Below are positions 10,919 to 50,846 of a DNA stretch of 64,000 bases, in pieces. The notes beneath the pieces were generated by a model, which saw only the letters and a list, made by a program, of their open reading frames with translations, ran no database searches and was not told where the DNA came from. The DNA is from Candidatus Curtissbacteria bacterium RIFCSPLOWO2_02_41_11. Its GTDB lineage: Bacteria; Patescibacteriota; Microgenomatia; Curtissbacterales; GWA2-41-24. Location of the stretch: the NCBI GenBank assembly GCA_001775055.1, contig MFBU01000009.1, positions 382-64,381 on the forward strand. The letters run 5' to 3'. The translations under genes were made by a program, and so were the position numbers. Position 1 is the stretch's first letter, and each line of letters starts with the position of its first letter.

Positions 10919-11100
10919 TTAAGGTTATTTTAGCAGTTTCACCCTGATCATGTCGACTTTACGTCAGTTGTTGGTGAAAATAGGATTTGGGACACAGAGT
11001 CGAAGACCCTGAGCGAGTGAAACGAGTCGAAGGGTCGCAGAATTTTGGGGATAGCTTCCCCACTTCTTGATTTTTACTTTGAGAGCGTCGTACAATTGTA

Positions 11101-11156
11101 ACTGACAACTGACAACTGACAACTGACAACTGACAACTGACAACTGACAACTGACA
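11101..11156 (+). repeat. 8 perfect tandem copies of heptamer ACTGACA ending 3 nt before the xerC-like ATG
   Basis: Counted directly: 56 nt = 8 x 7. Spurious ORFs 10959..11150 and 10964..11239 are artefacts of this tract. Confidence 0.9.
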
Positions 11157-11159
11157 AAA

Positions 11160-12095
11160 ATGGCTTTTGATCTGCCCTCTTTGATTGATGAGTTTTTAGA
11201 GTATTTAGAGATTGAGCGCAATCTCTCCCCTCTTACCATTCGCGATTACCGGCATTACTTAAATCATTTTGCTGATTGGTCAAAAAACCATTCTCCGATT
11301 TTGCGACCTCAGGATATAACAGTCGAGTTAATCCGCAAATATCGAGTGTATTTAGCCCATTACAACAGCCCGAACGGCCAATTACCTCTTAAAAAAGTCA
11401 CCCAGAATTATTATGTTATTGCCTTGCGGTCGTTTCTTAAATATTTAATAAGAAAAGATTTACCGGTGATATCGCCTGATAAAATTGAGCTTCCCAAAAC
11501 CGAAAGCCGTTCTTTGAAGTTTTTGGATCGGGATCAAGTTGATCGACTCTTGGTTCAACCGAATGTATCAAGCGAGCGAGGGATTCGTGATAAGGTTATC
11601 ATGGAGATGCTTTTTTCAACGGGACTTAGGGTTTCGGAATTGTGTCGGCTGAATCGGGACCAAGTTAATCTAGAGCGAGGTGAATTTGGAGTTGTCGGCA
11701 AAGGTCAACGCTTGCGGGTGGTTTTTCTTTCTGATAGGGCTAAAATTTGGCTGGAGAAGTATTTGGCAAGAAGAACGGATAGTTTTAAGCCGCTTTTTAT
11801 TCGGTATGCCGGTAATCAGGAACCTGTGGTTAATGGGGAGAAGATGAGATTGACTCCCCGATCTGTTCAGCGAATCATTGACAAATATGTGCGAAAAGCC
11901 CGTTTGCCGGTGAAGGCCACGCCCCATGTTCTTCGTCATTCATTTGCAACCGATCTTTTAATGAATGGAGCGGATTTAAGATCAGTGCAAGAGCTTTTGG
12001 GTCACAAGAATGTTTCTACCACCCAAATTTACACCCATGTAACAAATCAACAGTTGAGAGACGTACACAAGGCCTTTCATTCAGGGAATAAATAG
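11160..12095 (+). CDS. tyrosine site-specific recombinase XerC/XerD family
   Basis: N-terminal core-binding domain (FLEYLEIERNLSPLTIRDYRHYL) and C-terminal catalytic motifs (RHSFATDLLMNGADLRSVQELLGHKNVSTTQIYTHV). Confidence 0.88.
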   Translation: MAFDLPSLIDEFLEYLEIERNLSPLTIRDYRHYLNHFADWSKNHSPILRPQDITVELIRKYRVYLAHYNSPNGQLPLKKVTQNYYVIALRSFLKYLIRKDLPVISPDKIELPKTESRSLKFLDRDQVDRLLVQPNVSSERGIRDKVIMEMLFSTGLRVSELCRLNRDQVNLERGEFGVVGKGQRLRVVFLSDRAKIWLEKYLARRTDSFKPLFIRYAGNQEPVVNGEKMRLTPRSVQRIIDKYVRKARLPVKATPHVLRHSFATDLLMNGADLRSVQELLGHKNVSTTQIYTHVTNQQLRDVHKAFHSGNK

Positions 12096-12817: not shown

Positions 12818-12914
12818 TGCCCATCAAAAATGGCTGACCGTCTGGTATCAGCCAATTGTAATGTATGATAAACTAGATTATTCCCAAAATCAACTATGGG
12901 GTTAATTTCCCGAG

Positions 12915-15900
12915 TTAATTTTTGAAGGTTACATACTGATTCCAGGGAAGAATTTTGAGATCGGCGGGTTTTTTGAGGGAAATTGCCTTGACAAAAAGCT
13001 GAGCGGCTTGCATGTTGGCAAGTAGCGGTATGCCAAAGTCAATTGATGCTCGGCGGATTAAATAATCATCATCGAACTCTTTTTTAAAGTAAGGATCAAA
13101 GATATTGATGACCAGATCAATCTTTTTGGCCAAAAGAAAGTCCAGGACATTGGGTTTTTGATGTTCGTGAATTTTATAAAGTTTGGTAACATCAATACCG
13201 TGGTTTTTGAAAAATTGGGCGGTGCCGGCCGTGGCATAAATTTTAAGACCCATTTTAAAAAGAGTTTTGGCGGCTTCTTGGAATTTGATCTTGTTTTCTT
13301 CACCAGCCAGGGAGATAAAGACCGATTTTTTGGGTAAGGAGACACCGGTTGCTATTTGCGATTTTAAATAGGCCTCATAGATATCATCACCAAAACAGGC
13401 GACTTCACCGGTTGAGGCCATTTCGACTCGCAAAATCGGATCTGCGCCTTTGATACGGGCGAACGAAAACTGGGGAGCTTTGACCGCGACATAATCTGGT
13501 CTCTGGTCTCTGGTCTCTGGTCTCTGGTCAATGCCTAGTATTGCTTCGGTGGCTAATTTGGCAAAGTTGATGCCGGTGACTTTAGAGACAAAAGGAAGTG
13601 AGCGGCTGGCACGCAAATTGCACTCAATAACCATTACCCGGTTGTTTTCGGCCAAAAATTGGATGTTGAAAGGACCAGTGATGTTAAGTTCCCTAGCAAT
13701 TTTTTGGGCAATTTTTTTGATTTGTTCAATTGTTTGAGTGTAGAGCTTTTGGGCGGGCAAAACCATACTGGAGTCTCCGCTGTGTACGCCGGCATTTTCG
13801 ACGTGTTCTATGATCGCCTGACATAAAACTTTGCCGTTTTTGGCCACAGCATCGATTTCGATTTCTTTGGAATTTTGATGGAACTGAGAAATAACTACAG
13901 GGTATTCTGCGGAAACTTGTGAAGCAGCCAAAAGATAAGCTTCAAGGTCCTGCGGGTTAAAGGCCACATTCATGGCTGCTCCGGAAAGAACATATGATGG
14001 GCGTACTAAAACCGGATAGCCGATTTTTTGGGCAAAGACAATTGCCTCCCCGACATTTTTAAGTTTGGCCCAAACGGGTTGAGCGATATCAAGCTCGTCG
14101 CAAAGCTTGGAAAATTTGCTTCTGTCCTCTGCCCTATCGATTGAAGTGACTTTAGTTCCTAAAATTGCCAAGCCCCTTTGGGTAAGTTTGGTGGCCAGAT
14201 TGTTGGGGGTTTGGCCGCCCATGGAAACAATTAGGCCGCTCGGTTTTTCTTTGTGGTAAATTTCTGTGATTGTCTCTTCGGTTAATTCTTCAAAATAGAG
14301 TTTTTGGGCCATGTCAAAGTCGGTAGAAACAGTTTCGGGGTTACAGTTGATAATGATTGTCGAAAAATTGCAACTTTCGGCTGTTTGGGCACAAGTGACC
14401 GAACACCAGTCAAATTCGACAGAGGAACCAATGCGGTAAGGACCGGAGCCCAAGACGATAACCTTTGACATTTGACCTTTGACATTTGACCTTTGACTTA
14501 CAACATCATCTGATTCTCCATTGTAAGTCAGATAAAGGTAATTAGTCTCGGCCGGGTATTCGGCAGCTAAAGTGTCGATTTGTTTGACGGATGGATGAAT
14601 GTCGAATTTGTGTCGAAGTTGGCGGATTTTGTCTTTCGTTGAACCCGTTAAAGTTGTTAATCGTTTATCGGAAAACCCAAGTTGTTTGGCTAAAAGAAGA
14701 GCATCACGGCTATTAAAAGTATCAGGGGTACCATGAGTTTTTTGTTTTGAGACTTTGATACTTTTTTCAAAATCGCAGATATTCTTAAGTTTGTAAAGGA
14801 AGAATGGATCGATACCGGTGGCTTGGGCAATTTTTTCGACGGCAGTTTTTTGGCGGATAGCGCGGGCGATGGCAAAAATCCGCCAAGGGGTTGGTTTGGC
14901 CCAGGAAACCTTTGGTGCCTTTTCATCCAAAATTCCCTCAAAACCGATATCAAGCATACGCACGGCTTTTTGAATTGCCTCTTCAAATTTTCGACCGACA
15001 GCCATAACTTCGCCAACCGATTGCATCGAGGAGCCGATTTCTGTTTGGCTTTTTAAGAATTTGGCAAGATCCCATCTGGGGAACTTGACGACCAGATAAT
15101 CAAGAGCCGGTTCAAAGCAGGCAATGGTTTTTTTGGTAACCGAGTTTTGAAGATCGGTTAGTGAGTAGCCCAGCGCCAATTTGGCGGCAATATAGGCTAA
15201 GGGATAACCAGTGGCTTTGGAGGCCAATGCCGAGGAGCGGGAAAGACGGGCATTAACTTCGATGATGCGGTAGTCGAGGCTGGAAGTGAGAGATGAGAAG
15301 TGAGAAGCTGGATCCCACTTCGGATTTGGGTTCAGAGCGAATTGGATATTGCATTCGCCGACAATACCCAGGTGTCTAATGACTTTGATAGAAATCTCAC
15401 GAAGCTTGTGATATTCGAAGTTGTTAAGGGTTTGGGAAGGAGCAACGACGATTGATTCGCCCGTGTGGATGCCCATTGGGTCGATATTTTCCATGTTGCA
15501 AACAGTGATGCAGTTGTCAAATTTGTCTCTGACTACTTCATATTCAACCTCCTTCCACTTATCGAGATATTCCTCAATTAAGATTTGGCCAACTTTGGCA
15601 AGAGCCCGAGTGGCAATTTCCACAAGTTGTTTTCGATTTTGAGCCATACCGCTGTCTTGACCGCCTAGTGAAAAGCCGCCTCTTATCATTATCGGGTAGC
15701 CGATTGTGGTGGCGACAGCCAATGCTTGTTTGACGGTTTTAACTGCCTGACTTTGAGGGCACTTCAGGTTAATTTGATCTAAGGTGTTGACAAAAAGTTG
15801 TCGGTCTTCAGTCTTCTCGATTGTTTCAATGGATGTTCCTAATACTTCGACTTGGTATTTTTGAAAAATCCGATCCTTGGCCAGTAATAGACCGCAATTT

Positions 15901-16178
15901 AAGGCGGTTTGACCGCCAAAGGAAAGGATAATGCCGTCGGGTTTTTCTTTTTGGATGATTTTCTTAACGAAATAAGGTTCAATTGGCAAGAAATAAACGG
16001 TGTTGGCAAAGCCTTGAGAAGTCTGGATGGTGGCAATGTTGGGATTGACCAGAATGACTTTGATGCTTTCCTCTTTTAAGGCTTTAATGGCTTGTGAGCC
16101 GGAGTAATCGAATTCGCCGGCTTGGCCGATTTTGAGGGCTCCGGAGCCAAGAAGCAGAACTTTTTTGATTTTTTTCAT
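12915..16178 (-). CDS. carB: carbamoyl-phosphate synthase large subunit
   Basis: 1087 aa with duplicated ATP-grasp halves; N-terminus KKVLLLGSGALKIGQAGEFDYSGSQA. Contains in-frame heptamer-repeat-encoded insertions (RPETRDQ repeats; SQRSNVKGQM; HFSSLTSSL). Confidence 0.95.
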   Translation of the reverse strand: MKKIKKVLLLGSGALKIGQAGEFDYSGSQAIKALKEESIKVILVNPNIATIQTSQGFANTVYFLPIEPYFVKKIIQKEKPDGIILSFGGQTALNCGLLLAKDRIFQKYQVEVLGTSIETIEKTEDRQLFVNTLDQINLKCPQSQAVKTVKQALAVATTIGYPIMIRGGFSLGGQDSGMAQNRKQLVEIATRALAKVGQILIEEYLDKWKEVEYEVVRDKFDNCITVCNMENIDPMGIHTGESIVVAPSQTLNNFEYHKLREISIKVIRHLGIVGECNIQFALNPNPKWDPASHFSSLTSSLDYRIIEVNARLSRSSALASKATGYPLAYIAAKLALGYSLTDLQNSVTKKTIACFEPALDYLVVKFPRWDLAKFLKSQTEIGSSMQSVGEVMAVGRKFEEAIQKAVRMLDIGFEGILDEKAPKVSWAKPTPWRIFAIARAIRQKTAVEKIAQATGIDPFFLYKLKNICDFEKSIKVSKQKTHGTPDTFNSRDALLLAKQLGFSDKRLTTLTGSTKDKIRQLRHKFDIHPSVKQIDTLAAEYPAETNYLYLTYNGESDDVVSQRSNVKGQMSKVIVLGSGPYRIGSSVEFDWCSVTCAQTAESCNFSTIIINCNPETVSTDFDMAQKLYFEELTEETITEIYHKEKPSGLIVSMGGQTPNNLATKLTQRGLAILGTKVTSIDRAEDRSKFSKLCDELDIAQPVWAKLKNVGEAIVFAQKIGYPVLVRPSYVLSGAAMNVAFNPQDLEAYLLAASQVSAEYPVVISQFHQNSKEIEIDAVAKNGKVLCQAIIEHVENAGVHSGDSSMVLPAQKLYTQTIEQIKKIAQKIARELNITGPFNIQFLAENNRVMVIECNLRASRSLPFVSKVTGINFAKLATEAILGIDQRPETRDQRPDYVAVKAPQFSFARIKGADPILRVEMASTGEVACFGDDIYEAYLKSQIATGVSLPKKSVFISLAGEENKIKFQEAAKTLFKMGLKIYATAGTAQFFKNHGIDVTKLYKIHEHQKPNVLDFLLAKKIDLVINIFDPYFKKEFDDDYLIRRASIDFGIPLLANMQAAQLFVKAISLKKPADLKILPWNQYVTFKN
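13495..13529 (+). repeat. 5 tandem copies of heptamer TCTGGTC inside the carB coding sequence
   Basis: Counted directly; encodes QRPETRDQRPETRDQRP on the minus strand. Confidence 0.85.
14465..14499 (+). repeat. 5 tandem copies of heptamer TTTGAC[A/C/T] inside carB
   Basis: Counted directly; encodes the VVSQRSNVKGQM segment between the two CarB halves. Confidence 0.8.
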
Positions 16179-17242
16179 TTAAATTTCTCCATAAAGTAAT
16201 CAAACAGCCATTCGGTGTCGGTTGGGCCGGGAGTTGCCTCCGGATGAAATTGGACGGAGAAAAAAGGCAGCTTCTCATGAATAATCCCCTCATTGGTGTT
16301 GTCGTTAGCATTATAAAACCATCTTTTGAAACCATCAGGTAGTTTTTTTTCGTCAACCGCATAGCCGTGATTTTGGGTGGTGATGTAACAGCGTTTGGAG
16401 TTTACCTCGATTGTTGGTTGATTTTGGGCGCGATGACCGAATTTAAGTTTATAAGTGTTGCCACTGGCAGCAAGAGCTAAAAGTTGATTGCCCAGACAAA
16501 TGCCAAAAGTGGGGATTTTTTTATCTAGAGCTTTTTTAATAATAGCAATTGATTCTTTGGCCATTTTGGGGTCACCCGGGCCGTTGGAGATAACCAGACC
16601 GTCAATTGGTAGATTGTTTTCAAATGGATCATAATTCCATGGAAGTTCATAGACAGTAACCCCTCGAGAGAGAAAACTGCGAAGGATATTTCTTTTTGCA
16701 CCGCAGTTTAATAAGCCAATTTTTATACCTTTAAAGGAGTCTCCTTGAAATGGGGTGTGAATGATAGGTTTTGTTGGTGAGACTTTAGCAACGAGGTTTT
16801 CGGTATTGGGGTCCCAAAAATCGACATTTTGATTATCTGCGACTATTTTGCCAAGCATAACTCCCTTTTCTCGGAGTTTTTGAGTTAGGCGTCTGGTGTC
16901 GATACCAACAATTGCTGATATATTTTCTTTCTTTAACCACTGATCAAGCGTCATTTGGGATTGCCAGTGAGAAGGAATTATAGTCAGATCGCTGATGACA
17001 AGGCCGGCAACCTGGATTTTTTCGGATTCCCAATAATCTTTAGGTGGTACTCCCCAATTGCCAATTAAGGGATAGGTAAAAGTTAAAACTTGGCCGGCGT
17101 ACGATGGGTCAGTTAGGCTCATGTCATAGCCGACCATACCGGTGGCAAAAACCACCTCCCCGGCCACCGATCGTTTGGAGCCGGCAGCTTGACCATGGAA
17201 AATTGTTCCGTCTTCCAGGATTAATTTTGCTTTTTGCATCAT
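16175..17242 (-). CDS. carA: carbamoyl-phosphate synthase small subunit (glutamine amidotransferase)
   Basis: GICLGNQLLALA triad-Cys motif, VQFHPE. 4-nt ATGA overlap with carB. Confidence 0.93.
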   Translation of the reverse strand: MMQKAKLILEDGTIFHGQAAGSKRSVAGEVVFATGMVGYDMSLTDPSYAGQVLTFTYPLIGNWGVPPKDYWESEKIQVAGLVISDLTIIPSHWQSQMTLDQWLKKENISAIVGIDTRRLTQKLREKGVMLGKIVADNQNVDFWDPNTENLVAKVSPTKPIIHTPFQGDSFKGIKIGLLNCGAKRNILRSFLSRGVTVYELPWNYDPFENNLPIDGLVISNGPGDPKMAKESIAIIKKALDKKIPTFGICLGNQLLALAASGNTYKLKFGHRAQNQPTIEVNSKRCYITTQNHGYAVDEKKLPDGFKRWFYNANDNTNEGIIHEKLPFFSVQFHPEATPGPTDTEWLFDYFMEKFK

Positions 17243-17324: not shown

Positions 17325-19997
17325 TTACCTCTTTTTAACTTTTTTGACAACCCTAGTTTTAGTTTTTGGTTTGGCTTTTGGCTTTGCCTTTTTGGCTTTA
17401 ATCTTGAGTTTGTGTTTAGGCCTATTCTTGACTATAGATTTAGTTTTTGCTTTTGGTTTAGGTTTTGGCTTTTGTTGGGTTTTCGTTTGGGCGGCTACCT
17501 TTGAAGATTCGGGTTTTACAGATCCGTTTTCTACCTCCTCATCCTCCTTCTTTTTTTGAATGACAGTGGTGGCTGCGACTTTGTCGCCTACTGACAAGCG
17601 CATAATAATTACGCCCTGAGTATCCCGAGTAAGCCTAGGAATAGACCGTAGAGTTGTCCGCATGACCTGGCCTTTTTGGGAAGTCAAAATTAAGGCTTCA
17701 TCGGCCTTAGTTAGAATTTGGGCGCAGACAATCTCACCGGTTTTTTCGGTTAAGTTTGCCGCTTTTACACCGACGCCACCCCGAAGCTGCAATGGCCAGG
17801 CCAAAACCTGGGTTTTCTTACCAATTCCTTTATCGGTAATGACCAAAAGGTCAGCTTTTACGTCTCCTTTATCAATTACATCCATGCCGATTAGTTCATC
17901 ATTCGGTTTTAGTTTTATGCCGCGAACCCCCATGGTATCCCGAGCCATTGGTCGGACATCTTTTTCAGCGAATTTAATGGACAAGCCGTGCTTGGAAATC
18001 AGAAAAATGAGGTTGTCGCCGGCTGTTAATTTAGCCCAGCGCAGATGATCGCCGGAGGCAAGTTTAATAGCGATTATGCCTGATCTTCTAATCGATTCGT
18101 ATTGGGAAATTGCGGTTTTTTTGACAACGCCGTTTTTGGTTGCCATCAGCACATATTTGTGATTACTGGTCATTTGAGTCTTTTGTTTTTTAACTGGCAA
18201 GATCGATAGAACTTTTTCATTTTGTTGCAGGTCTAAAAGATTGACAATTGCTACCCCTTTGGAAACTCTGGAACTTTCAGGGAGATCATAGACTTTAAGC
18301 TGAAATACGCGGCCTATATTGGTAAAGAAAAGAAGGTTGTCATGGGTGTAGGCGGCAAATAGATGGGCAACGGTGTCCTCTTCTTTGGTGGTGATACCAG
18401 AGATACCCTTGCCGCCGCGGCGTTGAGTGCGGAAAGAAGAAAGATCTTGTCTTTTGACATAACCGCCCACGGTAACGGTAACGATAGTCGATTCATTGGC
18501 AATTAAATCCTCTTCGGAGAATTCACCGATTTTTTGTTTAAACACACGGGTGCGCCTGTCATCGCCGAAACGCTCTTTAAGCTTTAAAAGTTCTCCTTTG
18601 GCGACTGTTAAGATTTTTTCAGGGTGACTCAAGAGATCTTCCAAATAGGTAATTTCCTCAAGAGTCATGGTCAGTTCTTCCTCGATTTTTTGCCGCTCAA
18701 GACCCGAAAGCCTTTTGAGCTGCATATCCAGAATCGCCAGAGCCTGGACTTCGGTTAATTTAAATTTTTGCATTAGGTTGACTTTGGCGACTTGAGGATC
18801 CTGGCTTTTTTTAATGGTTTCGATGACGGCATCAATATTGTCAACGGCAATTTTTAAACCTTCCAAGATATGAGCTCGTTTTCTGGCTTCATCGAGTTCA
18901 AACTGGCTTCTTCTCTTAATGACTTTTTGGCGGTGTTTAATAAACTCACTCAAGATCATTTTGAGGGTTAGTGTTTGGGGAGTGCCATCAACAAGAGCCA
19001 CCATGTTGACCGGGAAGGATTGTTGCAGAGAGGTATGCTTGTAAAGATTATTTAGAACCGATTGCGGGCGGGCATCGCGCTTAAGTTCGATAACAATGCG
19101 CATACCTCGACGGTCGGATTCATCGCGAAGATCAGAAATCCCTTCCAGTTTCTTATCCTTGGCAAGCTCGGCAATTCTGGTGACAAGCGTTGCTTTGTTT
19201 ACCTGATATGGGATTTCGGAAACGGTTATTTGGAATTTAGCGCCTTTTGTTTCTTCAATATCGGCTTTGGCGCGCATTAAAATTTTACCGCGACCGGTGG
19301 CATAGGCGGCTGTAATTTCGGAAATGTCATAGATCTGGGCAGCAGTTGGGAAATCCGGTCCCTTAATATGTTCCATTAAATCCTCGACAGATAATTCCGA
19401 GTTGTCGATTAAAGCGCAGGCGGCATCAATGACTTCTGCCAAATTATGAGGCGGAATGTTGGTTGCCATACCGACGGCGATACCGGAGGCGCCGTTAATT
19501 AAAAGGTTTGGCAAAAGCGCCGGTAAAAATACCGGCTCTTTTAAAGTGCCGTCGAAATTCTCGGTAAAATCAACGGTTTTTTTATCGAGGTCGTAAAGCA
19601 GAGTTTCGGTAATGAGAGCCATGCGAGTTTCGGTGTAGCGCATAGCAGCCGGCGGGTCACCATCGATTGAGCCAAAGTTGCCTTGGCCATCGATTAACGG
19701 GTAACGCATGGAAAAGTCCTGAGCCATGCGCACCAGCGCCTCATAGACCGGAGCGTCGCCATGGGGATGGTATTTGCCTAAAACCTCACCGACAACTTTG
19801 GCGCTTTTGGAGTAGTGGGCACTGTGAGTTGTGCCCATTCGCTGCATGGCGTAGATGATTCGTCGGTGAACCGGTTTTAAGCCGTCGCGAACATCTGGCA
19901 GCGCGCGGGAAACAATAACCGACATAGCGTAGTCGAGATACGACCTTTGCATTTCATCTATAATTTCGACTTGCTGGATTTTGCCGATATCAGCCAT
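17325..19997 (-). CDS. gyrA: DNA gyrase subunit A, with lysine-rich C-terminal tail
   Basis: [21 protein letters not shown] and the rest of the GyrA N-terminus. ~50-aa KPKAKPK-type tail at the C-terminus. Confidence 0.95.
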
Positions 19998-25151: not shown

Positions 25152-25247
25152 GGGTATCACGGGCGCCAAGGGTATCACGAGTACCACAGGCTTAAAACAA
25201 AAAGCTCTTGATACTTTTGGTACATTTGATACCTTTGGTACTCTTAA
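25152..25247. repeat. copy A of a ~95-nt dyad-symmetric intercistronic repeat family (GGGTATCACGAG...AGCTCTTGATAC...GGTAC arms)
   Basis: Shares >60% identity and the same arm order with the copies at 37605, 40886 and 50511. Confidence 0.7.
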
Positions 25248-25254
25248 CATAAAC

Positions 25255-26319
25255 ATGTCTATCCAAGAGTATTTAGAAATTGTTGTTAAAAAGGAAGCTT
25301 CAGACCTTCATTTGGTTACCGGAATGCCGCCAATGGTGCGTATTGACGGGCAACTATTACCTGTTACCGGTTCTTTCTTGACACCAGAGGATACGGAAAG
25401 CCTGGTTTTTGAGCTTCTCTCCCCTGAGCAAAAGGAGATGCTTTTGGTTAACAGGGAGCTCGACTTTTCTTTTGCTCTTGGTGAAGTGGCTCGCTTTCGC
25501 GTCAATGCCTACTTTCAGAAAGGTTATCTGGCGGCAGCTTTAAGGCTGATTCCTTCATACATTAAGACGATTGAAGAACTAAACCTGCCCAAAATTTTGC
25601 ATAATTTTGCTAGACTTCGTCAAGGATTTATTTTGATTACAGGACCGACCGGTCACGGCAAGTCAACGACTTTGGCTTCGGTAATTAATGAAATTAACCA
25701 GACACGCGCGGTACACATAGTGACGATTGAAGATCCGATTGAGTATGTTTACCCTAAAGGCAAATCCCTAATTTCCCAAAGAGAGATGCATCTGGATACT
25801 CATTCATGGGAAATATCTTTGCGATCGGCTCTTCGAGAGGATCCTGATGTGGTTTTGGTTGGCGAGATGCGCGATTATGAAACAATCGCCTCGGCAATTA
25901 CCATCGCCGAGACTGGTCATTTGGTTTTTGCCACTCTGCACACCAATTCGGCTGCCCAGTCGGTCGACCGAATAATTGACGTTTTCCCCCAAAATCAACA
26001 GGCCCAAGTCCGGTTGCAACTTGCCGAGACAATTGCAGCTATTGTTTCGATGAGGTTGGTTCCAGCAATAGGTGGTGGAAGATTGCCAGCCGTAGAAATT
26101 CTTTTGACCAGTGGTGCAGTGCAGACGGTAATTAGAGAGGCCAAGAGTCACATGATTGACAATATTATTCAAACTTCGGGTGAAGCAGGCATGATTCTAC
26201 TTGATGCCTCTTTGGCCTATTTGGTTCGTTCTGGCAGGGTATCTCTGGATGTTGCCAAAAGTTACTGCATTAGGCCGGAGGAATTGGATCGCTTAGTGGG
26301 AAACAACACTAGTTCCTAG
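25255..26319 (+). CDS. pilT: type IV pilus retraction ATPase PilT
   Basis: ITGPTGHGKSTTLAS Walker A, AIRNLIRE-like segment VIREAKSHMIDNIIQTS. Confidence 0.92.
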   Translation: MSIQEYLEIVVKKEASDLHLVTGMPPMVRIDGQLLPVTGSFLTPEDTESLVFELLSPEQKEMLLVNRELDFSFALGEVARFRVNAYFQKGYLAAALRLIPSYIKTIEELNLPKILHNFARLRQGFILITGPTGHGKSTTLASVINEINQTRAVHIVTIEDPIEYVYPKGKSLISQREMHLDTHSWEISLRSALREDPDVVLVGEMRDYETIASAITIAETGHLVFATLHTNSAAQSVDRIIDVFPQNQQAQVRLQLAETIAAIVSMRLVPAIGGGRLPAVEILLTSGAVQTVIREAKSHMIDNIIQTSGEAGMILLDASLAYLVRSGRVSLDVAKSYCIRPEELDRLVGNNTSS

Positions 26320-26343
26320 CGACTAGTGACTAGCGTCTAGATT

Positions 26344-27558
26344 ATGTCACTTTACCGTTATACAGCCAAGGATTTAAGCGGCAAAAAGTTTACCGGCGAA
26401 GTCGAAGCAATTGACGAGAAAGCCTTGGTAACCACTCTTCAAGGCGAAGGGCTGGTGCCGATTGAGGTTAGAGAACGCAATGCCCAAGGTTCTATAACTA
26501 TTGAGAAAGTCTTGCCTAAGACTGGCGGAGTTTCTTCCTCTGAAATTGTGGGTTTTACCAGACAGCTTTCGACAATGATTTCAGCAGGTCTTCCTTTAAC
26601 CGATGCCTTGGTAATTTTGGAAAAACAGGCTAAAAATAAGCATTTTGCGCGGGTACTTGCAGAAGTTGTGGCTGATGTCGAAGGCGGTACGTCGCTTTCG
26701 GCGGCTTTTGCCAAACATCCCAGAGTTTTTGACATTATCTATGTGAAACTGGTTGAGGCCGGTGAAACCGGCGGAGTTTTGGATAAGATTTTAAATAAAC
26801 TGGCCGAGTCTTTAGAGAAAGAAAGGGAATTTAAGGCGAAAACCCGGGGCGCTTTTATTTATCCGGCAATTGTGGTTGTGGTTATGATTATCGTAATGAG
26901 TATTATGATGATTTTTGTAATCCCCAAACTGACCAGTCTTTACACTGAAATCGGAGCAGCCCTGCCGCTTCCAACGAGAATTTTAATTGTCATGTCTAAT
27001 TTCATGAGGTCGTTCTGGTGGCTTTTAATAATGATGGTAATAGCCGGTACTTATAGCTTTAGGACATATTCCAAAACAGTCAGGGGCGGCCAGATTGTCT
27101 CAAAATTTGTTTTATGGTTGCCCATTTGGGGAAAAATCCGCAAAACCTTAATTTTAGCTCAATTCACGCGCACGCTTGGACTTTTAATCGGTAGTGGAAT
27201 CCCAATTATTACTGCCCTAAAAGTGGTGGCCGATCTTTTGGCCGCTCCTACTTATAAGGAAGGTATTGAATTTGCAATTTCCCGGGTGGAGCGTGGTGCG
27301 CCGCTTTATCAACCGCTGGCTGCCAGTCCCGATTTTCCGCCGATTATCGGGCAAATGATCAGAGTTGGTGAGGAAACAGGTAAGATGGACGAGGTCTTGA
27401 TTAGACTTTCTGTTTACTTTGAAGCGGAAAGCGAGAATTTGATTCGAAATTTAACAACGGCACTCGAGCCGGTAATTTTAGTGATTTTGGGTGCGGGCGT
27501 TGGTGTTTTAGTGCTTTCTATTATCCTGCCGATCTACAATTTGACAGCGCAATTCTAA
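26344..27558 (+). CDS. pilC: type IV pilus platform protein PilC (GspF family)
   Basis: Two GspF repeats and three transmembrane segments. Confidence 0.9.
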   Translation: MSLYRYTAKDLSGKKFTGEVEAIDEKALVTTLQGEGLVPIEVRERNAQGSITIEKVLPKTGGVSSSEIVGFTRQLSTMISAGLPLTDALVILEKQAKNKHFARVLAEVVADVEGGTSLSAAFAKHPRVFDIIYVKLVEAGETGGVLDKILNKLAESLEKEREFKAKTRGAFIYPAIVVVVMIIVMSIMMIFVIPKLTSLYTEIGAALPLPTRILIVMSNFMRSFWWLLIMMVIAGTYSFRTYSKTVRGGQIVSKFVLWLPIWGKIRKTLILAQFTRTLGLLIGSGIPIITALKVVADLLAAPTYKEGIEFAISRVERGAPLYQPLAASPDFPPIIGQMIRVGEETGKMDEVLIRLSVYFEAESENLIRNLTTALEPVILVILGAGVGVLVLSIILPIYNLTAQF

Positions 27559-27580
27559 CTGGAAACTAGAAACTATAAAC

Positions 27581-27946
27581 TTGGAACCAGACACAGTAAA
27601 TTTTAGATTCTTAAATTTTAAGGTCTACAAAGACGCAAAAAAATTTTATCATGAGATTGTTAGGATAACTGCTAACTTTCCTAGGCAATATTGGGAGTTG
27701 GGAGACCAGATGAGAAGAAGCGCTCTTTCTGTAATTCTTAATCTAGCAGAGGGTTCAGCCAAGAAGTCAGACAGAGATTTTAACCGTTACATTAAAAATA
27801 GTTTAGGGTCAATAAATGAGTGCGCAGCGGGTATTGACGTGGCTTTTGGCGAAAAACTTGTAAATGAGGAGGTTTTTAAAAATCTAATGATTAAAGCGTC
27901 AGAAATCGCAAATCAATTAGGCGGGTTCTCAAAATCTTTGAGGTAA
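27581..27946 (+). CDS. four-helix-bundle protein (23S rRNA IVS protein / Avd-like family)
   Basis: FRFLNFKVYKDAKKFYHEIVRITANFP...RRSALSVILNLAEGSAK...SLGSINEC fits the TIGR02436/Avd pattern. TTG start. Confidence 0.75.
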   Translation: MEPDTVNFRFLNFKVYKDAKKFYHEIVRITANFPRQYWELGDQMRRSALSVILNLAEGSAKKSDRDFNRYIKNSLGSINECAAGIDVAFGEKLVNEEVFKNLMIKASEIANQLGGFSKSLR

Positions 27947-28124
27947 CTCGAAACATTAAACCTTAAACTTGAAACCATAAACTGAACAGAGACTAAGTGG
28001 TGGTAGCTTGTGAAGTATTTCATGTTTCCAGTTTATTGTTTCCTGTTTCACGTTAGGTATCTTGACAACAGTTAACTTATCCCCAATACTTAAATAGAAG
28101 AGGAAATTTGAAAAGTTTATCCTC

Positions 28125-31061: not shown

Positions 31062-31739
31062 ATGCCCTTCCATAAAGTATCTAGTATCTGGTATCTAGTA
31101 TCTGGTATTAAATATACTAAATACAAAATACTAAATACAAAATACTGTAAAACCAAAGGCTTTACCCTCATTGAGCTTTTGGTTGTTTTGGGGATTTTGG
31201 CGGCGGCTGTTGGGGCTTCCATGATTTTTCTTACCTCTGTTTTAAAAGGGACTAATCAGGCTAATGTGACGGCCGAAGTTAAGCAAAACGGCCAAGTAGT
31301 TTTAGATTCACTGGAAAAACAGATTCGTGGTGCTACTGATGTGGAGTGTGCCAATAGTGCGGGGAACTCCGTTGATTGTTCCGATGCATCTGCTTCTCTT
31401 AAATACTTAAAGCTTGTGAGATCGGATGAAGACCCGTTACATATCGGGTGTTTTTTGGATAGTCTACCCAAAACAGAAAATGGCTGGATAGGCATTGTTG
31501 AGTCAGCTCTAGCTTATCCTTCATCAACAAACTATGTATCGGTTACAAATAAAGATGCTATTTCAGGAGTTGATATTCAGGATTGTAATTTTAAGGTATC
31601 CTCTGCATCTTCTGGAACAACTTCGCCATCGGTAGTTTCCATTAGCTTTATAGTCAATCAAGGAATTGACGCACCTTCACGCGCGGATTTTTTGGCTAAT
31701 GCTAAATTCGAGACGACGATATCGCTGAGAAACTATTAA
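31062..31739 (+). CDS. pilin-like protein with unusually long, repeat-encoded leader
   Basis: ...CKTKG|FTLIELLVVLGILAAA. The 33-aa leader is encoded by heptamer/14-mer tandem repeats at 31080-31145. True start uncertain. Confidence 0.65.
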   Translation: MPFHKVSSIWYLVSGIKYTKYKILNTKYCKTKGFTLIELLVVLGILAAAVGASMIFLTSVLKGTNQANVTAEVKQNGQVVLDSLEKQIRGATDVECANSAGNSVDCSDASASLKYLKLVRSDEDPLHIGCFLDSLPKTENGWIGIVESALAYPSSTNYVSVTNKDAISGVDIQDCNFKVSSASSGTTSPSVVSISFIVNQGIDAPSRADFLANAKFETTISLRNY

Positions 31740-31832
31740 AGTTACAACTGACATTTGACCCACCTTCGCTAAAGCTACGGTGGGCAAGCAATTGACAACA
31801 GAGGGCTATTCTACCTAAACTGGAGTTAGGAG

Positions 31833-32618
31833 ATGAAAAAGAAGAAGGGACAGGTTTTGGTACTTGTTTTATTGGTTGTCGTAGTAGCCTTGGCTGTTGG
31901 CCTTTCGGTGGCTAGCAGAAACCTGACCAATCTTAGAACGACTACTCAAACCGAACAGTCTCAGAGAGCCTTTAATGCAGCCGAAGGCGGGATAGAGAGT
32001 ATTCTTCCAAATTTAGCTACAGTTGCGGAAGGGCCTCAACCAGCAATTCAAGTGGGTAATCTTGAAGCCAATGTCACTGTTAATAAAGAGACTGAATACT
32101 TCTGGACGATTCCAGAAGGAGAAGTTGGTCAGGTTAAATTGGATGACGCAACCGGTAGCCCGACTGAGATTCAAATTGAGTGGGTCAAAACCGGTGATCC
32201 TCAAGAAGATCCGACACCGCCGCTCAGCGGTACTCCTGCCTCGGTTGAGATTACGAGAATCGATGAGACTGCAGGTAATTTTACCCAACAGAGATTTGCC
32301 TTGACAGGTGGATCGGCAGGGGTAAACGAGCAGGGTTTTGATTCTCCAAGTAATTGTTCTGCCGACTTTGTGAAATGTACAAAAATTGGTTTTCCAAGTA
32401 ATTCGCGAATTTTAAGAATCAGACCCTTTTGGAATCAGGCGACGGTTAAGGTAACATCTGTTGGCGGTAGCCTTCCCGATCAGCAATATACTATTACTTC
32501 ATCGGCAACGTCCGAACTTGGATTGACTAGAAAAATTGAAGTTACCAAAACAGTTTTGCCGCAGCTGCCGGCGGTTTTTGACTATGTTTTGTATTCTGAA
32601 CGAGATATTGTTAAGTAA
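31833..32618 (+). CDS. hypothetical membrane-anchored protein in pilus locus
   Basis: N-terminal transmembrane segment VLVLVLLVVVVALAVGL, rest T/S/G-rich. Confidence 0.55.
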   Translation: MKKKKGQVLVLVLLVVVVALAVGLSVASRNLTNLRTTTQTEQSQRAFNAAEGGIESILPNLATVAEGPQPAIQVGNLEANVTVNKETEYFWTIPEGEVGQVKLDDATGSPTEIQIEWVKTGDPQEDPTPPLSGTPASVEITRIDETAGNFTQQRFALTGGSAGVNEQGFDSPSNCSADFVKCTKIGFPSNSRILRIRPFWNQATVKVTSVGGSLPDQQYTITSSATSELGLTRKIEVTKTVLPQLPAVFDYVLYSERDIVK

Positions 32619-32647
32619 CAACTGACAACTGACATTTGACAAAAAAT

Positions 32648-38243: not shown

Positions 38244-38405
38244 ATAAATAATTTAAAATTTAAAATTTAAAATTTTTTCTACCACCTACTAACTATCTAA
38301 CTACAAACTAATCTGGGGTATCAAGGAGTCAAGGGATCAAAAAATTGCTTTTGGCTCTTTGACTTTTCGATACCGGTTGGCATTATATCAGAAATAGCTT
38401 TGTCG

Positions 38406-40885: not shown

Positions 40886-40985
40886 GATAAGAGTATCACG
40901 AGTTTCAAGTGAATCAAGAGCATCAAAAGCTTTTTGATTAATTATAGCCAGTGGTACCCGTGGTGTTTTTGGAGTTCGTATTGCT
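40886..40985. repeat. copy C of the dyad-symmetric intercistronic repeat
   Basis: AGAGTATCACGAG...AGCTTTTTGAT...GGTACCCGTGGTG. Coordinates are ±10 because of the display inconsistency. Confidence 0.6.
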
Positions 40986-43463: not shown

Positions 43464-43510
43464 AGCTAAATTGTGCCTTATAGTTTATCACGGGTGTCAA
43501 GAAATGCAAA

Positions 43511-43569
43511 ATCCGAAGGTGTCAAGCTACTTCACCCTTGGGGTGAATTAGGTTTACACCTGCGGATTA
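43511..43569. repeat. REP-like imperfect palindrome, left flank of the RAYT
   Basis: ATCCGAAGGTGTCAAGCTACTTCACCCTTGGGGTGAATTAGGTTTACACCTGCGGAT. Terminal arms are inverted, with a central CACCCTTGGGGTG palindrome. Confidence 0.75.
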
Positions 43570-44214
43570 TTTAGGTAAATCAAGTGTTTGATGCTTGATT
43601 CTTTCGAGCTCCTTTCCGTAATTTTCTTGATCAAGGACGAATTGTTTATACTTTTGTGATGATTTAAATTGTTTGACGATTATGTCTTTTGAGCAAACTG
43701 AGGTTTTGTTTATACCAATGTACTCCAAATAAGAGGACAGTGGGTATAATTCTAAATTGTCTGTTAAATAACTGACAAGCGGATTAAGATGAATGTATCT
43801 TGACAGGTGAACAAGTTGTTCATTAGTTTCAACGAGGACCGATTTAAACTCCCCTTGCAGTATGGGTCCTGCCCTTTCATTTTTGGTGTTAAAGTATTTG
43901 GTGTAGCTATTGCTAATCTTGCTGGTAAATTCCGTGATACCGCCATTAACTTTTTGCTGAAGTAGAAAATGGAAATGATTAGGCATTAGACAGTAGCAGA
44001 CTAATTCAACAATTTTATTGTGTGTATCCAACTTATTATTATCAGGGTTAAAAATAGAGAATTTTGGCTTGGGTCCTTTAAGCTGATAATAAAGAAATGT
44101 TTTGATGAATCTTTTGTAGTCCCATTTGTCATTGAATATTGGCATATGAGCCACGCCTCTATTGAAGATATGGTAAAAATGGTTATTGACGAAAGGAATA
44201 ATCCTTGATGGCAT
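43567..44214 (-). CDS. IS200/IS605-family Y1 transposase (REP-associated tyrosine transposase, RAYT-like)
   Basis: HUH motif in CLMPNHFHFLL; catalytic-Tyr region SRYIHLNPL. Size 215 aa. Flanked by REP-like palindromes. Confidence 0.75.
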   Translation of the reverse strand: MPSRIIPFVNNHFYHIFNRGVAHMPIFNDKWDYKRFIKTFLYYQLKGPKPKFSIFNPDNNKLDTHNKIVELVCYCLMPNHFHFLLQQKVNGGITEFTSKISNSYTKYFNTKNERAGPILQGEFKSVLVETNEQLVHLSRYIHLNPLVSYLTDNLELYPLSSYLEYIGINKTSVCSKDIIVKQFKSSQKYKQFVLDQENYGKELERIKHQTLDLPK

Positions 44215-44247
44215 TGTTTTTAGGATTTGAGGCTAATAAATCATATA

Positions 44248-44310
44248 AATCCGCAGGTGTCAAGTTGAATCACCCTTGGGGTGGATTCCGTTGGCACCTT
44301 GGGCAGATTC
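44248..44310. repeat. REP-like imperfect palindrome, right flank of the RAYT
   Basis: ATCCGCAGGTGTCAAGTTGAATCACCCTTGGGGTGGATTCCGTTGGCACCTTGGGCAGATTC, ~80% identical to the left copy. Confidence 0.75.
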
Positions 44311-47002: not shown

Positions 47003-49039
47003 TTATCTTCTAATTATTGCCTGGAAGGATTTGGAAAAAGCATCGATAATTTTTTCGCGAACTATTATTACCTCTTCTTGTGTTGGGGTTCGGTCGGATC
47101 GTTGATAAGTTAGTCTGAGGGTCACCGATTTTTTATCCTTACCGATTTTTTCGTCTTTAAAAATGTCGATCACATCAACCTTTTTAACTAATGGACTGCC
47201 GGCTTTTTTGACTTGGGCAATAATTTCTGCAAGTAGTGTTTTTTGGTTAAATATCGCTGAAATATCTTCAATTACAGCTGAGTATTTAGGTACCGGTTTA
47301 TACGAAAGTTGGAAGGTTGGTAGTTGGTAGATTGTCGATAAATTGATCTCGCAAGCAGCGACTTGACCTTCGAGATTAAAGTAATCGATGATCTGGTCAT
47401 TTAAGATGCCGCAAGTTCCAACAAGACTTTCTCCTACTTTGATTTGAGCAACCTCTTCTTTTTCAAAAAGATGATTTTCTCCTGTGAACTTTTGAAATTT
47501 GGGAATGCGCAAGAGTATCTCAAAAACATTTTCAACTAGGCCTTTAATCTGATAAAAATCGGCATTTTGCCAAGCGATAGCCAGCATCAAGTCTTGTTTG
47601 GGTAGATCGCCTTCATTTTTAATATAGGTTTTGGCCACTTCAAAAACTTTAATATCTTTCTCTATATTTTGATTTTCGGCAATAACTTGGGCAAGAGATA
47701 CTAGAACGGTCGGTCTCATAAATTGCCACTCGGAAGTTAAAGGGTTGGCGAGCTCAACCGCTTCTTTTTCTTTAGTTTTGGAAAGTTCAAACAGTTCTTT
47801 CGCGATAATCGAATAAGAGATAACTTCTGTTAGGCTTAAATATTTAAGGGCTTTTTTAAGCTCAATGACGCCAGCTAAATCACTCTCTCCTCCTTGGGGA
47901 ATTTGGCCTTCAGGTAGATTGGAAGGCAAATGATGATAGCCGTAAACTCTAGCAATTTCTTCAATTAAATCAACATCATCTTTAACATCAAGAATGCGCC
48001 AGCTCGGGACAACCGCACTGATAACTTGTGGTGTTGTTTTAACCGCAAACCCTAAAAGCCCCAAAATTTTAGTAGTTTTTTCGACGGAAATTTCCACACC
48101 AAGATAATTTTTAAGTTTATTTAGGGAAAGAGAAATAGTTTTTTCTACGGATTTTACGGCCGTTATATCAATTAGTTCAGAAGCAATTTTGGCATTTGAA
48201 ACTTGTTTAGTAAGATAAACTGCACGCGAGAGCGCCGGTACAATTCCTTCAAGATCAATACCCTTTTCGAATCTGGTAGCCGCTTCGGTTCTAAAAGCAA
48301 GAGCCTGACAGGTTTTTCTGATGGTTTGCGGATCGTAGGCTTGGACAAAAAGAACTACCTTTTTGGTCCTTCTGGTAATTTGGGAGTTTTCGCCTCCCAT
48401 GATCCCGCAAAGATCAATTAGTCTGCCTTCGTCTTCAATAACGATTGCTCCTTTTGGAAGTTTTTGTACTTTGCCGTCTAAAGTTTTGATTTTTTCTCCT
48501 TCGCGTGATGGGCGAAGGGTCATTTTGTGGTTTTTGATTTTGTCGAAGTCGAAGGTATGCATTGGTTGTCCGAGCTCAAGCATTATGTAATTGGAAATAT
48601 CCACAATATTATTGATTGCGCGGATACCTACGGATTCCAGTCTTTTGCAAATAATTGCCGGTGAAGGTTTTATTTTGACATTATCAACAATAATAGCTGT
48701 AAAGCGGGGGCAAAGCCGATGGTCTGTGATTTTAACATCCAAAGTTAGAGGGTTGGTTCTGTCCGGTTCTAGAGGCAAATTCAAACCTTTAGGTGAAATC
48801 AGTTCTGACTTGATGTTTTCATTTGTAAGTATGGCGTTAGCTTCACGGGCTATACCAAAGACGGAAAAAGCATCGCTGCGGTTACTGGTTACTTCGACAT
48901 CAAAAATGTAATCATCGCCGCGCTTTTCGACTCTTTCAATCGATGGGCCGGAAAGTGAAAGTAAATTGGCAATTGTTTTGGCAGCAATATTGGCCTTTAA
49001 ATAATCTCTAAGCCAAGAGACGGGAACGCGAATATTCAT
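47003..49039 (-). CDS. pheT: phenylalanyl-tRNA synthetase beta subunit (short form)
   Basis: MNIRVPVSWLRDYL...B3/B4, B5 and catalytic-like domains. 678 aa, lacking the N-terminal tRNA-binding domain. Confidence 0.88.
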   Translation of the reverse strand: MNIRVPVSWLRDYLKANIAAKTIANLLSLSGPSIERVEKRGDDYIFDVEVTSNRSDAFSVFGIAREANAILTNENIKSELISPKGLNLPLEPDRTNPLTLDVKITDHRLCPRFTAIIVDNVKIKPSPAIICKRLESVGIRAINNIVDISNYIMLELGQPMHTFDFDKIKNHKMTLRPSREGEKIKTLDGKVQKLPKGAIVIEDEGRLIDLCGIMGGENSQITRRTKKVVLFVQAYDPQTIRKTCQALAFRTEAATRFEKGIDLEGIVPALSRAVYLTKQVSNAKIASELIDITAVKSVEKTISLSLNKLKNYLGVEISVEKTTKILGLLGFAVKTTPQVISAVVPSWRILDVKDDVDLIEEIARVYGYHHLPSNLPEGQIPQGGESDLAGVIELKKALKYLSLTEVISYSIIAKELFELSKTKEKEAVELANPLTSEWQFMRPTVLVSLAQVIAENQNIEKDIKVFEVAKTYIKNEGDLPKQDLMLAIAWQNADFYQIKGLVENVFEILLRIPKFQKFTGENHLFEKEEVAQIKVGESLVGTCGILNDQIIDYFNLEGQVAACEINLSTIYQLPTFQLSYKPVPKYSAVIEDISAIFNQKTLLAEIIAQVKKAGSPLVKKVDVIDIFKDEKIGKDKKSVTLRLTYQRSDRTPTQEEVIIVREKIIDAFSKSFQAIIRR

Positions 49040-50510: not shown

Positions 50511-50608
50511 GTAAGAGTACCATGGGAATCAAGGGTATCAAGAGTATCATGAGCTTTTTGATTTATAGCTCTTGGTACCCGTGGTACTCTTGGAACCCGT
50601 GATACTTT
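50511..50608. repeat. copy D of the dyad-symmetric intercistronic repeat, filling the rpmI–rplT spacer
   Basis: AGAGTACCATGGG...GGGTATCAAGAGTATCATGAGC...AGCTCTTGGTACCCGTGGTACTCTTGG; long imperfect hairpin. Confidence 0.75.
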
Positions 50609-50805: not shown

Positions 50806-50846
50806 ATTCGAACTTTAAACTGTAAACTTTAAACTTGAAACTAATT

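Follow-up and report, generated by a model that had tools for sequence, protein, structure and literature searches.

The carB gene of a Candidatus Curtissbacteria bacterium, which encodes the large subunit of carbamoyl-phosphate synthetase (CPS) and lies in the 64,000-nt stretch of DNA analysed here (the window; all coordinates are window positions), contains short tandem arrays of 7-nt units within its coding sequence. These tracts are probably heptanucleotide microsatellites, kept by slippage in permissive loops of a functional CarB that is encoded by a conditionally dispensable operon. They have the features of simple sequence repeats (SSRs), namely head-to-tail copies above chance, length polymorphism in whole units and concerted evolution of the copies. 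Three such tracts had been reported in an earlier note made from the sequence alone, and all three were recovered within a single carB open reading frame (ORF) by Tandem Repeats Finder (TRF) and by translation (sites 1-3 in Table 1); all of them are in frame and free of stop codons.

The carB product matches human CPS1 (5dot, E = 0) and Escherichia coli CarB (1bxr, E = 1e-245) from end to end, and it belongs to the eukaryote/archaea-like sequence type of CPS. Its closest named relatives are CPS large subunits of Candidatus Curtissbacteria, an uncultured lineage within the candidate phyla radiation (CPR)/Microgenomates. In an AlphaFold (AF2) model of CarB (predicted local distance difference test, pLDDT, 81; predicted template modelling score, pTM, 0.85) and in the alignment to solved CPS structures, all three tracts lie in coil between secondary-structure elements. 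Rfam and tRNA scans gave no match within carB.

At site 1, the coding strand is a perfect (GACCAGA)x5.0, whose unit has no other occurrence in the window, and it is translated as DQRPETRDQRP(D), which amounts to 11-12 residues and not to the 17-residue QRPETRDQRPETRDQRP given in the earlier note. The loop concerned, residues 881-896 of the carbamoyl-phosphate domain, lies between a helix (872-880) and a strand (897-902) of the model. The segment from ATEAILG to VAVKAPQF is 29 aa long both in the window and in outgroups, with no net change in length, so that site 1 is an ancestral 14-aa loop overwritten at constant length, not a net insertion. Site 2 is best described by TRF as 2.6 copies of the 14-mer ACCTTTGACATTTG from 14461 to 14497 (100%, score 74); on the coding strand GGTCAAA and TGTCAAA units alternate as a 14-nt higher-order repeat, which encodes SQRSNVKGQMSK(V) and holds an in-frame ATG (M570) preceded by AAGG. 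This tract lies in the linker joining the two homologous CPS halves (loop 552-571, flanked by strands 546-551 and 572-576), where pLDDT falls below 50 at residues 562-565. The segment from YLTYN to VLGSGPY measures about 27 aa in outgroups, 33 aa in the window (about +6 aa) and at most 79 aa in relatives.

Site 3 consists on the coding strand of degenerate (TCTCACT)-type units encoding SHFSSLTSS, one residue less than the SHFSSLTSSL of the earlier note. This peptide is part of a 14-aa insertion (residues 286-299) directly ahead of the active-site strand IIEVNARL, and both CPS1 and E. coli CarB show a 14-residue gap opposite it in the alignment. The loop (residues 283-302) runs from strand 274-282 to the active-site strand (303-309), with pLDDT below 50 at 292-298, and the segment from NIQFAL to IIEVNARL grows from 22 aa in outgroups and 26 aa in minimal Curtissbacteria to 36 aa in the window and up to 86 aa in relatives. 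Given its TRF score of 36, the tract by itself could be due to chance, and it is counted as genuine because relatives have longer, homologous arrays at this site; its peptide is homologous with those of P0006, P0007, P0051 and P0054. Placed on the alignment and on the structure, the low-complexity segments thus fall in loops and are unlike canonical CPS, as had been proposed. The statement that canonical CarB has no such insertions holds for sites 2 and 3, which are net insertions, but fails for site 1.

The set of three was incomplete, and a fourth repeat-derived insertion (site 4) had been overlooked. Its anchor-to-anchor segment is 40 aa long compared with a mode of 30-31 aa among homologues, and the DNA has a 9-nt periodicity (lag-9 autocorrelation 22/48), by which site 4 appears to be a decayed copy from a family of 9-nt repeats (GGTACC/GATAC-like). 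Similar peptides are found in P0003, P0008, P0035 and P0037, and relatives have related peptides, such as TRDTLTTRDT, at this position. This family, with a period of 9 or 18, also occurs at 25208-25241, 40889-40926 and 50513-50606, the carB copy including GTPDTFNSRD, and accounts for 10 TRF rows in the window versus 1.9 in shuffles.

The same CarB loops were shown, at the level of sequence, to carry heptamer arrays of different units in many Curtissbacteria lineages. In an alignment of 120 CarB sequences (including 107 Curtissbacteria-type homologues and 12 outgroups), in which conserved anchors delimit the loops, identity at a lag of 7 aa, equal to three heptamers, is 16.1% at site 1, 12.7% at site 2 and 9.9% at site 3 (about 96 distinct homologue segments per site), while other lags and the rest of CarB give 5-8%. 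Of the 80 distinct site 1 variants that keep the ancestral length (16 aa or less), at least 16 show a minimum of three lag-7 identities, against 1 and 0 in the lag-6 and lag-8 controls. In the DNA of 20-odd relatives, arrays of other units were seen at these sites, in L001, L002, L003, L085-L087, L100-L109 and L173, with units such as (AACTGTC)5.4 in L003 and (AAGTTCG)4.7 in L101 at site 1, (AGTTCAC)4.4..(AACCGTC)4.4 at site 2 of L003 and, in L002, (GACCAGA)n..(AACTGGA)n at site 3, and the reading frame is kept in about 100 CarB homologues. Identical peptides without DNA periodicity, which in orthologues would have spoken against the earlier note's reading, were not found among these relatives; their peptides differ, and the 7-nt periodicity is present in the nucleotides at the same sites.

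Comparison of homologous arrays shows concerted evolution, since one substitution is found in all copies of each lineage. At site 1, (AAATGTC)5 in the conspecific contig L081 has the same codon register as (AACTGTC)5.4 in L003, and L087 has a matching interrupted array; at site 2, (AACCGTG)n of L085 corresponds to (AACCGTC)n of L003; and at site 3, the TCTCACT-type units of the window correspond to (TCTCACC)3 in L087, at 70% protein identity. The unit type of site 2 is common to the window and several relatives. The arrays persist for long and are re-homogenised continually, and the three tracts are of unequal age, site 3 being an old one.

In L087, site 3 is a palindrome of about 110 nt with (GAAGTGG)n as its left arm and (TCTCACC)n as its right arm (z = -4 to -4.6). 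Compared with it, site 3 of the window is the decayed right arm of such a palindromic element, about 66 nt (22 codons) of which are missing, and its residual stem (Table 1) agrees with a remnant arm, not with the simple array first described. An inverted partner is absent from sites 1 and 2, and their RNAs reach a minimum free energy (MFE) of only 0 to -3 kcal/mol, not better than shuffles. The earlier proposal of a repeat-generating process invading coding DNA does not hold in the form of a simple recent invasion, as site 3 and the (TGTCAAA)n array of site 1 are shared by descent with relatives at about 70% protein identity and evolve in concert. GC-rich hairpins nested within heptamer arrays were also seen at site 2 of L086, at site 1 of L087 and at 31724-31787 of the window, for example (GTCAAAC)n - gcccgcttcgcgagcgaagcgaggc - (GTCAAAT)n, which suggests that small elements of a second kind land in the arrays.

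Natural alleles were compared among the window and 12 other conspecific contigs, all at least 99.7% identical and all consensus short-read metagenome assemblies. Site 1, covered by 12 contigs, reads (GACCAGA)5 in nine, (GACCAGA)4 in one (L083) and (TGTCAAA)5 in two (L081 and L082). At site 2, 12 contigs have a tract of 36 nt and one (L084) has a tract of 22 nt, and site 3 is invariant in all 13. By the loss of 7 nt at site 1, carB of L083 is called as 935 + 168 aa. By the loss of 14 nt at site 2, that of L084 is called as 584 + 512 aa with the break exactly at the inter-half linker, where ATG TCA AAG GTT (MSKV) of the array remains in frame with the C-terminal half. The backgrounds of both contigs are 99.8-99.9% identical to the window. 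The prediction that slippage by single units would frameshift carB is therefore seen in natural alleles, whereas the view that the repeats are tolerated only when net in-frame was too strong, as out-of-frame alleles were assembled in two of the 13 contigs.

The two (TGTCAAA)5 alleles differ from the others by replacement of a whole cassette (Table 1). Between the window and L081, 28 of 43 differences over 23.3 kb fall inside this cassette, and the next ones lie more than 1.9 kb off. The swap changes three flanking codons (CTA/CTC, GGC/GAG and TAT/TAC), of which the first and the last are synonymous changes that suggest short-patch import of a diverged allele; no donor of the swapped cassette was found. 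Outside carB sites 1 and 2, none of 170 array-by-contig comparisons showed a change in array length, compared with 2 of 21 in carB, and the picture of arrays that are hypermutable everywhere was therefore dropped. Even the longest perfect array, at 11100-11157 (x8.3, (AACTGAC)8), is identical in seven conspecific contigs. In L092, which is about 5% diverged, an in-frame loss of 21 nt was found in the array at 30541, arrays are present or absent, and an inverted array pair is replaced. A conspecific metagenome-assembled genome (MAG), L180 (GenBank LCBC01000012.1), lacks 111 nt (12892-13002) including the last 29 carB codons, as well as 105 nt (11098-11202) that comprise the whole (AACTGAC)8 array and the start of the integrase gene; both gaps could be genuine deletions or joins made during assembly.

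In 19 Curtissbacteria loci, a count was made of the period-7 arrays that lie within ORFs of 150 aa or more. carB has 41 arrays (0.66 per kb) and carA, the gene for the glutaminase subunit, has six (0.47 per kb), all in the interdomain linker, while other genes, including gyrA, gyrB, pilB and a xerC-like gene, have six in total (0.034 per kb). Internal coding arrays are thus about 20-fold denser in carB and 14-fold denser in carA than in other genes (binomial p ~1e-15, with events that are non-independent because the genomes are related). carA lies directly upstream of carB and overlaps it by 4 nt, which indicates that both form one operon. In the window carA is without an array, while in relatives its interdomain linker (window equivalent about 16700-16760) is a fifth hot spot, seen in L085, L086, L088, L107, L109 and L173, examples being QSETRNQKLETRN, KPESRIQNPESR and, in L173, a palindromic element. 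Null alleles of carB also arise by other routes: in a species of the P0002 cluster (75% identical), P0132/P0133, a single contig has carB in two parts of 429 and 713 aa, and the break (KSQT|EIGSS|MQSV) is outside all hot spots. An in-frame array was found as well in pheT (47003-49039, minus strand), the gene for the phenylalanyl-tRNA synthetase beta chain, where AGTTGGT x3.3 at 47307-47330 encodes YQLPTFQL in the linker that joins the catalytic-like domain to the FDX-ACB domain, so that carAB is not the sole housekeeping carrier.

Table 1. Repeat tracts of carB, their genes and other elements in the window
Feature	Position	Strand	Description
carB, CPS large subunit	12915-16178	minus	single intact ORF, 1087 aa (1087 codons)
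carA, glutaminase subunit	16175-17242	minus	Pfam CPSase_sm_chain + GATase in syntenic loci
Site 1 array	13495-13529	minus	TRF: TCTGGTC x5.0, 100% matches, score 70
Polymorphic cassette holding site 1	13491-13536	minus	(TGTCAAA)x5 and altered flanking codons in two contigs, net +3 nt
Site 2 array	14461-14498	minus	TRF: TTTGACA x4.9 at 14464-14497, 88%; better as a 14-mer
Site 4, fourth repeat-derived insertion	14709-14753	minus	residues 476-490 (SKQKTHGTPDTFNSRD), oligomerisation domain, about +9 aa
Site 3 array	15283-15307	minus	TRF: GAAGTGA x3.6, 77% matches, score 36
Site 3 residual stem	15297-15321	minus	9 bp, GAAGUGGGA / UCUCACUUC on mRNA; fold -12.3 kcal/mol, z = -1.98
RAYT-like ORF	43567-44214	minus	215 aa; Pfam match to IS200-like Y1 transposase, 24 bits; NCBIfam match to REP-associated tyrosine transposase, 44 bits (cut-off 80)
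REP-like palindromic copies	43509-43561 and 44247-44299		53 nt each, 81% identical, flanking the RAYT-like ORF

The carB tracts belong to a wider excess of this period. For the class as a whole chance can be dismissed: 29 arrays of period 7 were counted in the window, where 20 dinucleotide shuffles gave 1.6, and the corresponding figures are 10 and 0.4 for period 14 and four and 0.0 for perfect arrays of period 7. Periods 5, 6 and 8 are close to background. Although non-coding DNA makes up about 8% of the window, 17 of the 29 period-7 arrays are intergenic, frequently abutting start codons, and the remaining 12 lie inside ORFs; the proposed sharing of a 7-nt period between the carB tracts and intergenic repeats was thus confirmed. 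Among 160 arrays there are 86 different canonical units, mostly A/T-rich, the commonest of which (AAATTGG) occurs only eight times; the window's own units seldom recur, and a period of 7 or 14 is strictly preferred whatever the unit sequence. The density of period-7 arrays per 10 kb is 4.5 in the window and 4-9 in most Curtissbacteria loci, compared with 0.4 in L088, which has the same synteny and an insert-free CarB of 1058 aa, and mostly 0-1 in outgroup loci. The hits of the contig search made with CarB were for the most part distant CPS genes; L001-L003 were the sole Curtissbacteria among them, and the rest served as outgroup controls for array density. The low density in L088 and the outgroups indicates that the period-7 habit belongs to a Curtissbacteria subclade.

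Several other arrays of the window are placed at gene starts or ends. Intergenic heptamer arrays at 11100-11157, 26316-26340, 32618-32642, 38250-38275 and 50811-50842 end 0-8 nt from start codons, in the place of the Shine-Dalgarno sequence, ahead of genes for a xerC-like integrase, pilC, an 84-aa ORF, an rpmF-like and an rpmI-like gene. At 31062-31146, adjacent (AGTATCT)4.7 and (ATACTAA)4.7 form an inverted pair, from which a type IV pilin-like gene takes its leader peptide. Both strands of the pair fold strongly (z = -4.6 and -5.6), and the minus one pairs perfectly with the use of G-U; at this place L092 has another pair, (ACAGTTC/ACAGTTA)n..(AACCGTG)n, composite as in carB site 2 of L085 and L003. 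An Avd-like four-helix-bundle gene (27581-27946; PF05635, TIGR02436), whose called length is 78 or 121 aa depending on the conspecific contig, is flanked by three heptamer arrays (27557-28049). The Lys/Ala-rich C-terminal tail of GyrA (17363-17488, the 3′ end of gyrA) contains overlapping repeats with periods of 6, 7, 13/14 and 19, and GyrA varies from 839 to 900 aa in length across relatives.

As microsatellites, the arrays would be born, homogenised and resized through strand slippage or unequal exchange, and selection would retain stop-free orientations, tolerated positions and lengths that restore the frame. Since 7 is not a multiple of 3, this turnover runs through null alleles, and homogenisation of a 5-copy array must presumably cross null states such as the observed 4-copy allele, so that arrays should persist mainly where a transient loss of the gene is survivable. 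In a host-dependent CPR bacterium, carAB may be such a conditionally dispensable operon, which would explain arrays in carAB and none in gyrA, gyrB or pilB without invoking a function. Whole tracts would be replaced occasionally, as in the site 1 swap, most likely by short-patch recombination between alleles circulating in the species. As to the period itself, the sole candidate mechanism is a published idea (cited in PMC4692102), by which the polymerase footprint would favour slippage by 7 nt.

Several points weigh against this microsatellite account. Slippage alone fails to explain the (GACCAGA)5/(TGTCAAA)5 swap on a background that is 99.8% identical, and it does not explain a 14-aa loop that has turned nearly entirely into array at constant length in at least 16 of 80 short variants. 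The longest perfect array (x8.3) should vary if it were prone to slippage, yet it does not among the seven contigs, and changes in length are confined to carB (0/170 versus 2/21). As the genomes are related, the roughly 20-fold enrichment may reflect four or five ancient seeding events. Moreover, the dispensability of carAB is itself presumptive, and the frameshift alleles are known from assemblies, not from reads.

The same polymorphism could be read as adaptive. carAB would then be a contingency operon, in which non-triplet arrays are selected as reversible switches; site 1 would toggle CarB on and off, and site 2 would make the enzyme either fused or split, with translation of the C-terminal half beginning anew from the ATG of the array. 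If so, carbamoyl phosphate synthesis could follow host supply. Since variation among conspecific contigs is confined to the carB arrays (2/21 plus the two swapped contigs, versus 0/170) and frameshift-prone arrays are concentrated in carB and carA across the clade, adaptive phase variation stays alive as an explanation, albeit an unlikely one. Unit changes do flip the carB ORF between intact and broken, the arrays remain perfect over long divergence, the -14 allele cuts exactly at the linker of the CPS halves with its MSKV start in frame, and neuO offers a precedent of a coding heptanucleotide repeat that is ON only if its copy number is divisible by 3 (PMC13001214). However, carB encodes a cytoplasmic housekeeping enzyme of biosynthesis and is not a surface, host-interaction or restriction-modification gene. 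OFF alleles were found in only two of 13 contigs, and neither 6-copy nor other intermediate alleles were seen among them; sites 3 and 4 are decayed and invariant; the Shine-Dalgarno-like AAGG is just 4 nt from the ATG; and the carB break outside the arrays in a relative fits relaxed selection equally well.

An origin from small mobile palindromic elements with heptamer arrays as arms, similar to transposable elements of the miniature inverted-repeat type (MITEs) or Rickettsia palindromic elements (RPEs) and perhaps moved by a Y1 transposase like the REP-associated tyrosine transposases (RAYTs; REP, repetitive extragenic palindrome), would make the single arrays half-elements that remained after deletion. 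It accounts well for site 3, whose full palindrome is present at sites 3 and 2 of L087, for the recurrence of (ACAGTTC)n, an A-rich spacer and (AACCGTG)n in carB site 2 of L085, L099 and L003 and at the 5′ end of the pilin-like gene of L092, and for a second family, translated as RNPKQYQNSNDKNSKRFE..LFRASDLEIRN, that occupies site 3 or site 2 depending on the genome. The hairpins nested inside arrays of L086 and L087, the in-frame and stop-free tracts at structurally permissive positions with low pLDDT at sites 2 and 3, and a RAYT-like gene with flanking REP-like copies (43509-44299) point the same way. Nevertheless, sites 1 and 2 fold like shuffles without an inverted partner, only site 3 keeping a stem; the diversity of units is contrary to a few element families; no target-site duplications were seen; and perfect hairpins accompany arrays in only 1 of 23 cases. 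The RAYT match is below the NCBIfam cut-off, and the REP-like motif occurs within the window only in the two copies that flank the RAYT-like gene, which gives no support for RAYT-driven spread. A mobile-element origin therefore seems improbable for the tracts as a group, and it is demonstrable for site 3 only. The replacement of a whole cassette on a 99.8% identical background has also a more radical explanation, in which an active, unit-independent process of the Curtissbacteria subclade writes 7-nt arrays over DNA at approximately constant length, by reiterative gap-filling or templated repair as candidates, and its products survive in the carAB loops. The site 1 loop overwritten at constant length with unrelated units in at least 20% of lineages and the strict period of 7 or 14 irrespective of the unit would follow from it. 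Such writing is hardly probable, since the altered flanks with their two synonymous sites resemble an imported diverged allele, the (TGTCAAA) allele is old and common to L087 and L003, selection on loop length could alone give constant length, and neither a candidate enzyme or template nor a reverse transcriptase was found among the scanned ORFs. As all sequences come from short-read metagenome assemblies, the tracts or their variants might be thought to be assembly artefacts, which is very improbable because the arrays (25-38 nt) are far below read and assembler k-mer length, an identical carB allele occurs in independent samples and assemblers (ENA, JGI and NCBI records), and variants differ by exact multiples of the unit with the frame kept in about 100 homologues. 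The variable region of a diversity-generating retroelement was rejected, as the alleles are unit indels or whole-tract replacements and the ORFs scanned contain no reverse transcriptase domain, only the Avd-like gene; an intein or excised intervening sequence was likewise rejected, as the inserts are 6-14 aa long, of low complexity and lineage-specific, and carB has no Rfam match.

Known repeat systems each resemble the carB microsatellites in part. The phage-borne gene neuO, for the K1 capsule O-acetyltransferase of E. coli, has the coding heptanucleotide repeat 5′-AAGACTC-3′ (PMC13001214). As in carB, the array is part of an ORF, all three of its phases are translated, a slip by one unit shifts the frame, and both kinds of allele occur in natural genomes. 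However, neuO is an accessory surface-modification gene with a single long 5′-terminal array (3-53 copies) whose switching has been measured, whereas carB, a core metabolic enzyme gene, has several short arrays (about five copies) in internal loops, with units that vary by site and lineage and with replacement of whole arrays. In the contingency loci of Haemophilus and Neisseria, where phase variation is mediated by SSRs (PMC2651432, PMC8262952), non-triplet repeats also lie in ORFs or promoters, and polymorphism of unit number between close strains switches expression. Those loci are surface or host-interaction genes, usually with many copies of tetra- or pentanucleotide units, while carAB is an operon for biosynthesis whose genes hold 3-4 arrays each, in low copy number.

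Over-represented heptameric SSRs are found in Xanthomonas (GGGAATC) and Nostoc/Anabaena (GGGGAYT) and as the short tandemly repeated repetitive (STRR) heptamers of cyanobacteria (PMC4692102). These share with Curtissbacteria a lineage-specific, genome-wide excess of period 7, mostly intergenic and near gene ends, with some inverted pairs and with length and sequence varying between related genomes. They use one or a few G-rich consensus units with G-quadruplex potential, in contrast to the many, mostly A/T-rich units here (86 among 160 arrays), the CPR host and the many arrays in frame within carAB. RPEs sit within protein-coding genes as in-frame insertions (reviewed in PMC10969869), and like the palindromes of about 110 nt at carB sites 2 and 3 of relatives, with the remnant at site 3 of the window, they are selfish or neutral repeats that survive in housekeeping ORFs in frame and compatible with the fold. 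They measure about 150 bp and form ten conserved families, each with a conserved peptide, whereas the tracts of the window are 25-38 nt long, two of the three are without a palindromic partner, and sequence is not conserved from one site to another. The 14-nt deletion in L084 cuts CarB at an inter-half linker that is also the point of division in other organisms. Naturally split CarB, with separate genes for the N- and C-terminal halves, is known for example in Aquifex aeolicus and Methanocaldococcus jannaschii, and the L084 allele has an ATG in frame for the C-terminal half; in contrast to these, its split arises from slippage at the level of strains and leaves an out-of-frame tail of 16 residues. 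For CPR bacteria, Microgenomates and Curtissbacteria, the literature search found no report on repeats of the heptamer or tandem kind. With many unrelated A/T-rich units and several internal-loop arrays in a core biosynthetic enzyme, the present case differs from each of the known systems.

Non-triplet microsatellites are normally purged from the genes of core enzymes, every slip being a null mutation. Here, arrays sit, stay homogeneous and turn over in carAB across a CPR clade, and broken or swapped alleles are visible in natural populations. In practical terms, they will yield spurious calls of pseudogenes or split genes and length outliers in the annotation of CPR MAGs. They also provide a natural map of loop tolerance in CPS, in which four or five positions accept 6-60 arbitrary residues and one is able to split the enzyme, and a clean system for the question of why some bacteria favour 7-nt units, which has been outstanding since the cyanobacterial STRR repeats. 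If the arrays are indeed microsatellites kept where loss of the gene can be survived, they would serve as a natural readout of the biosynthetic functions that are conditionally dispensable in host-dependent CPR bacteria.

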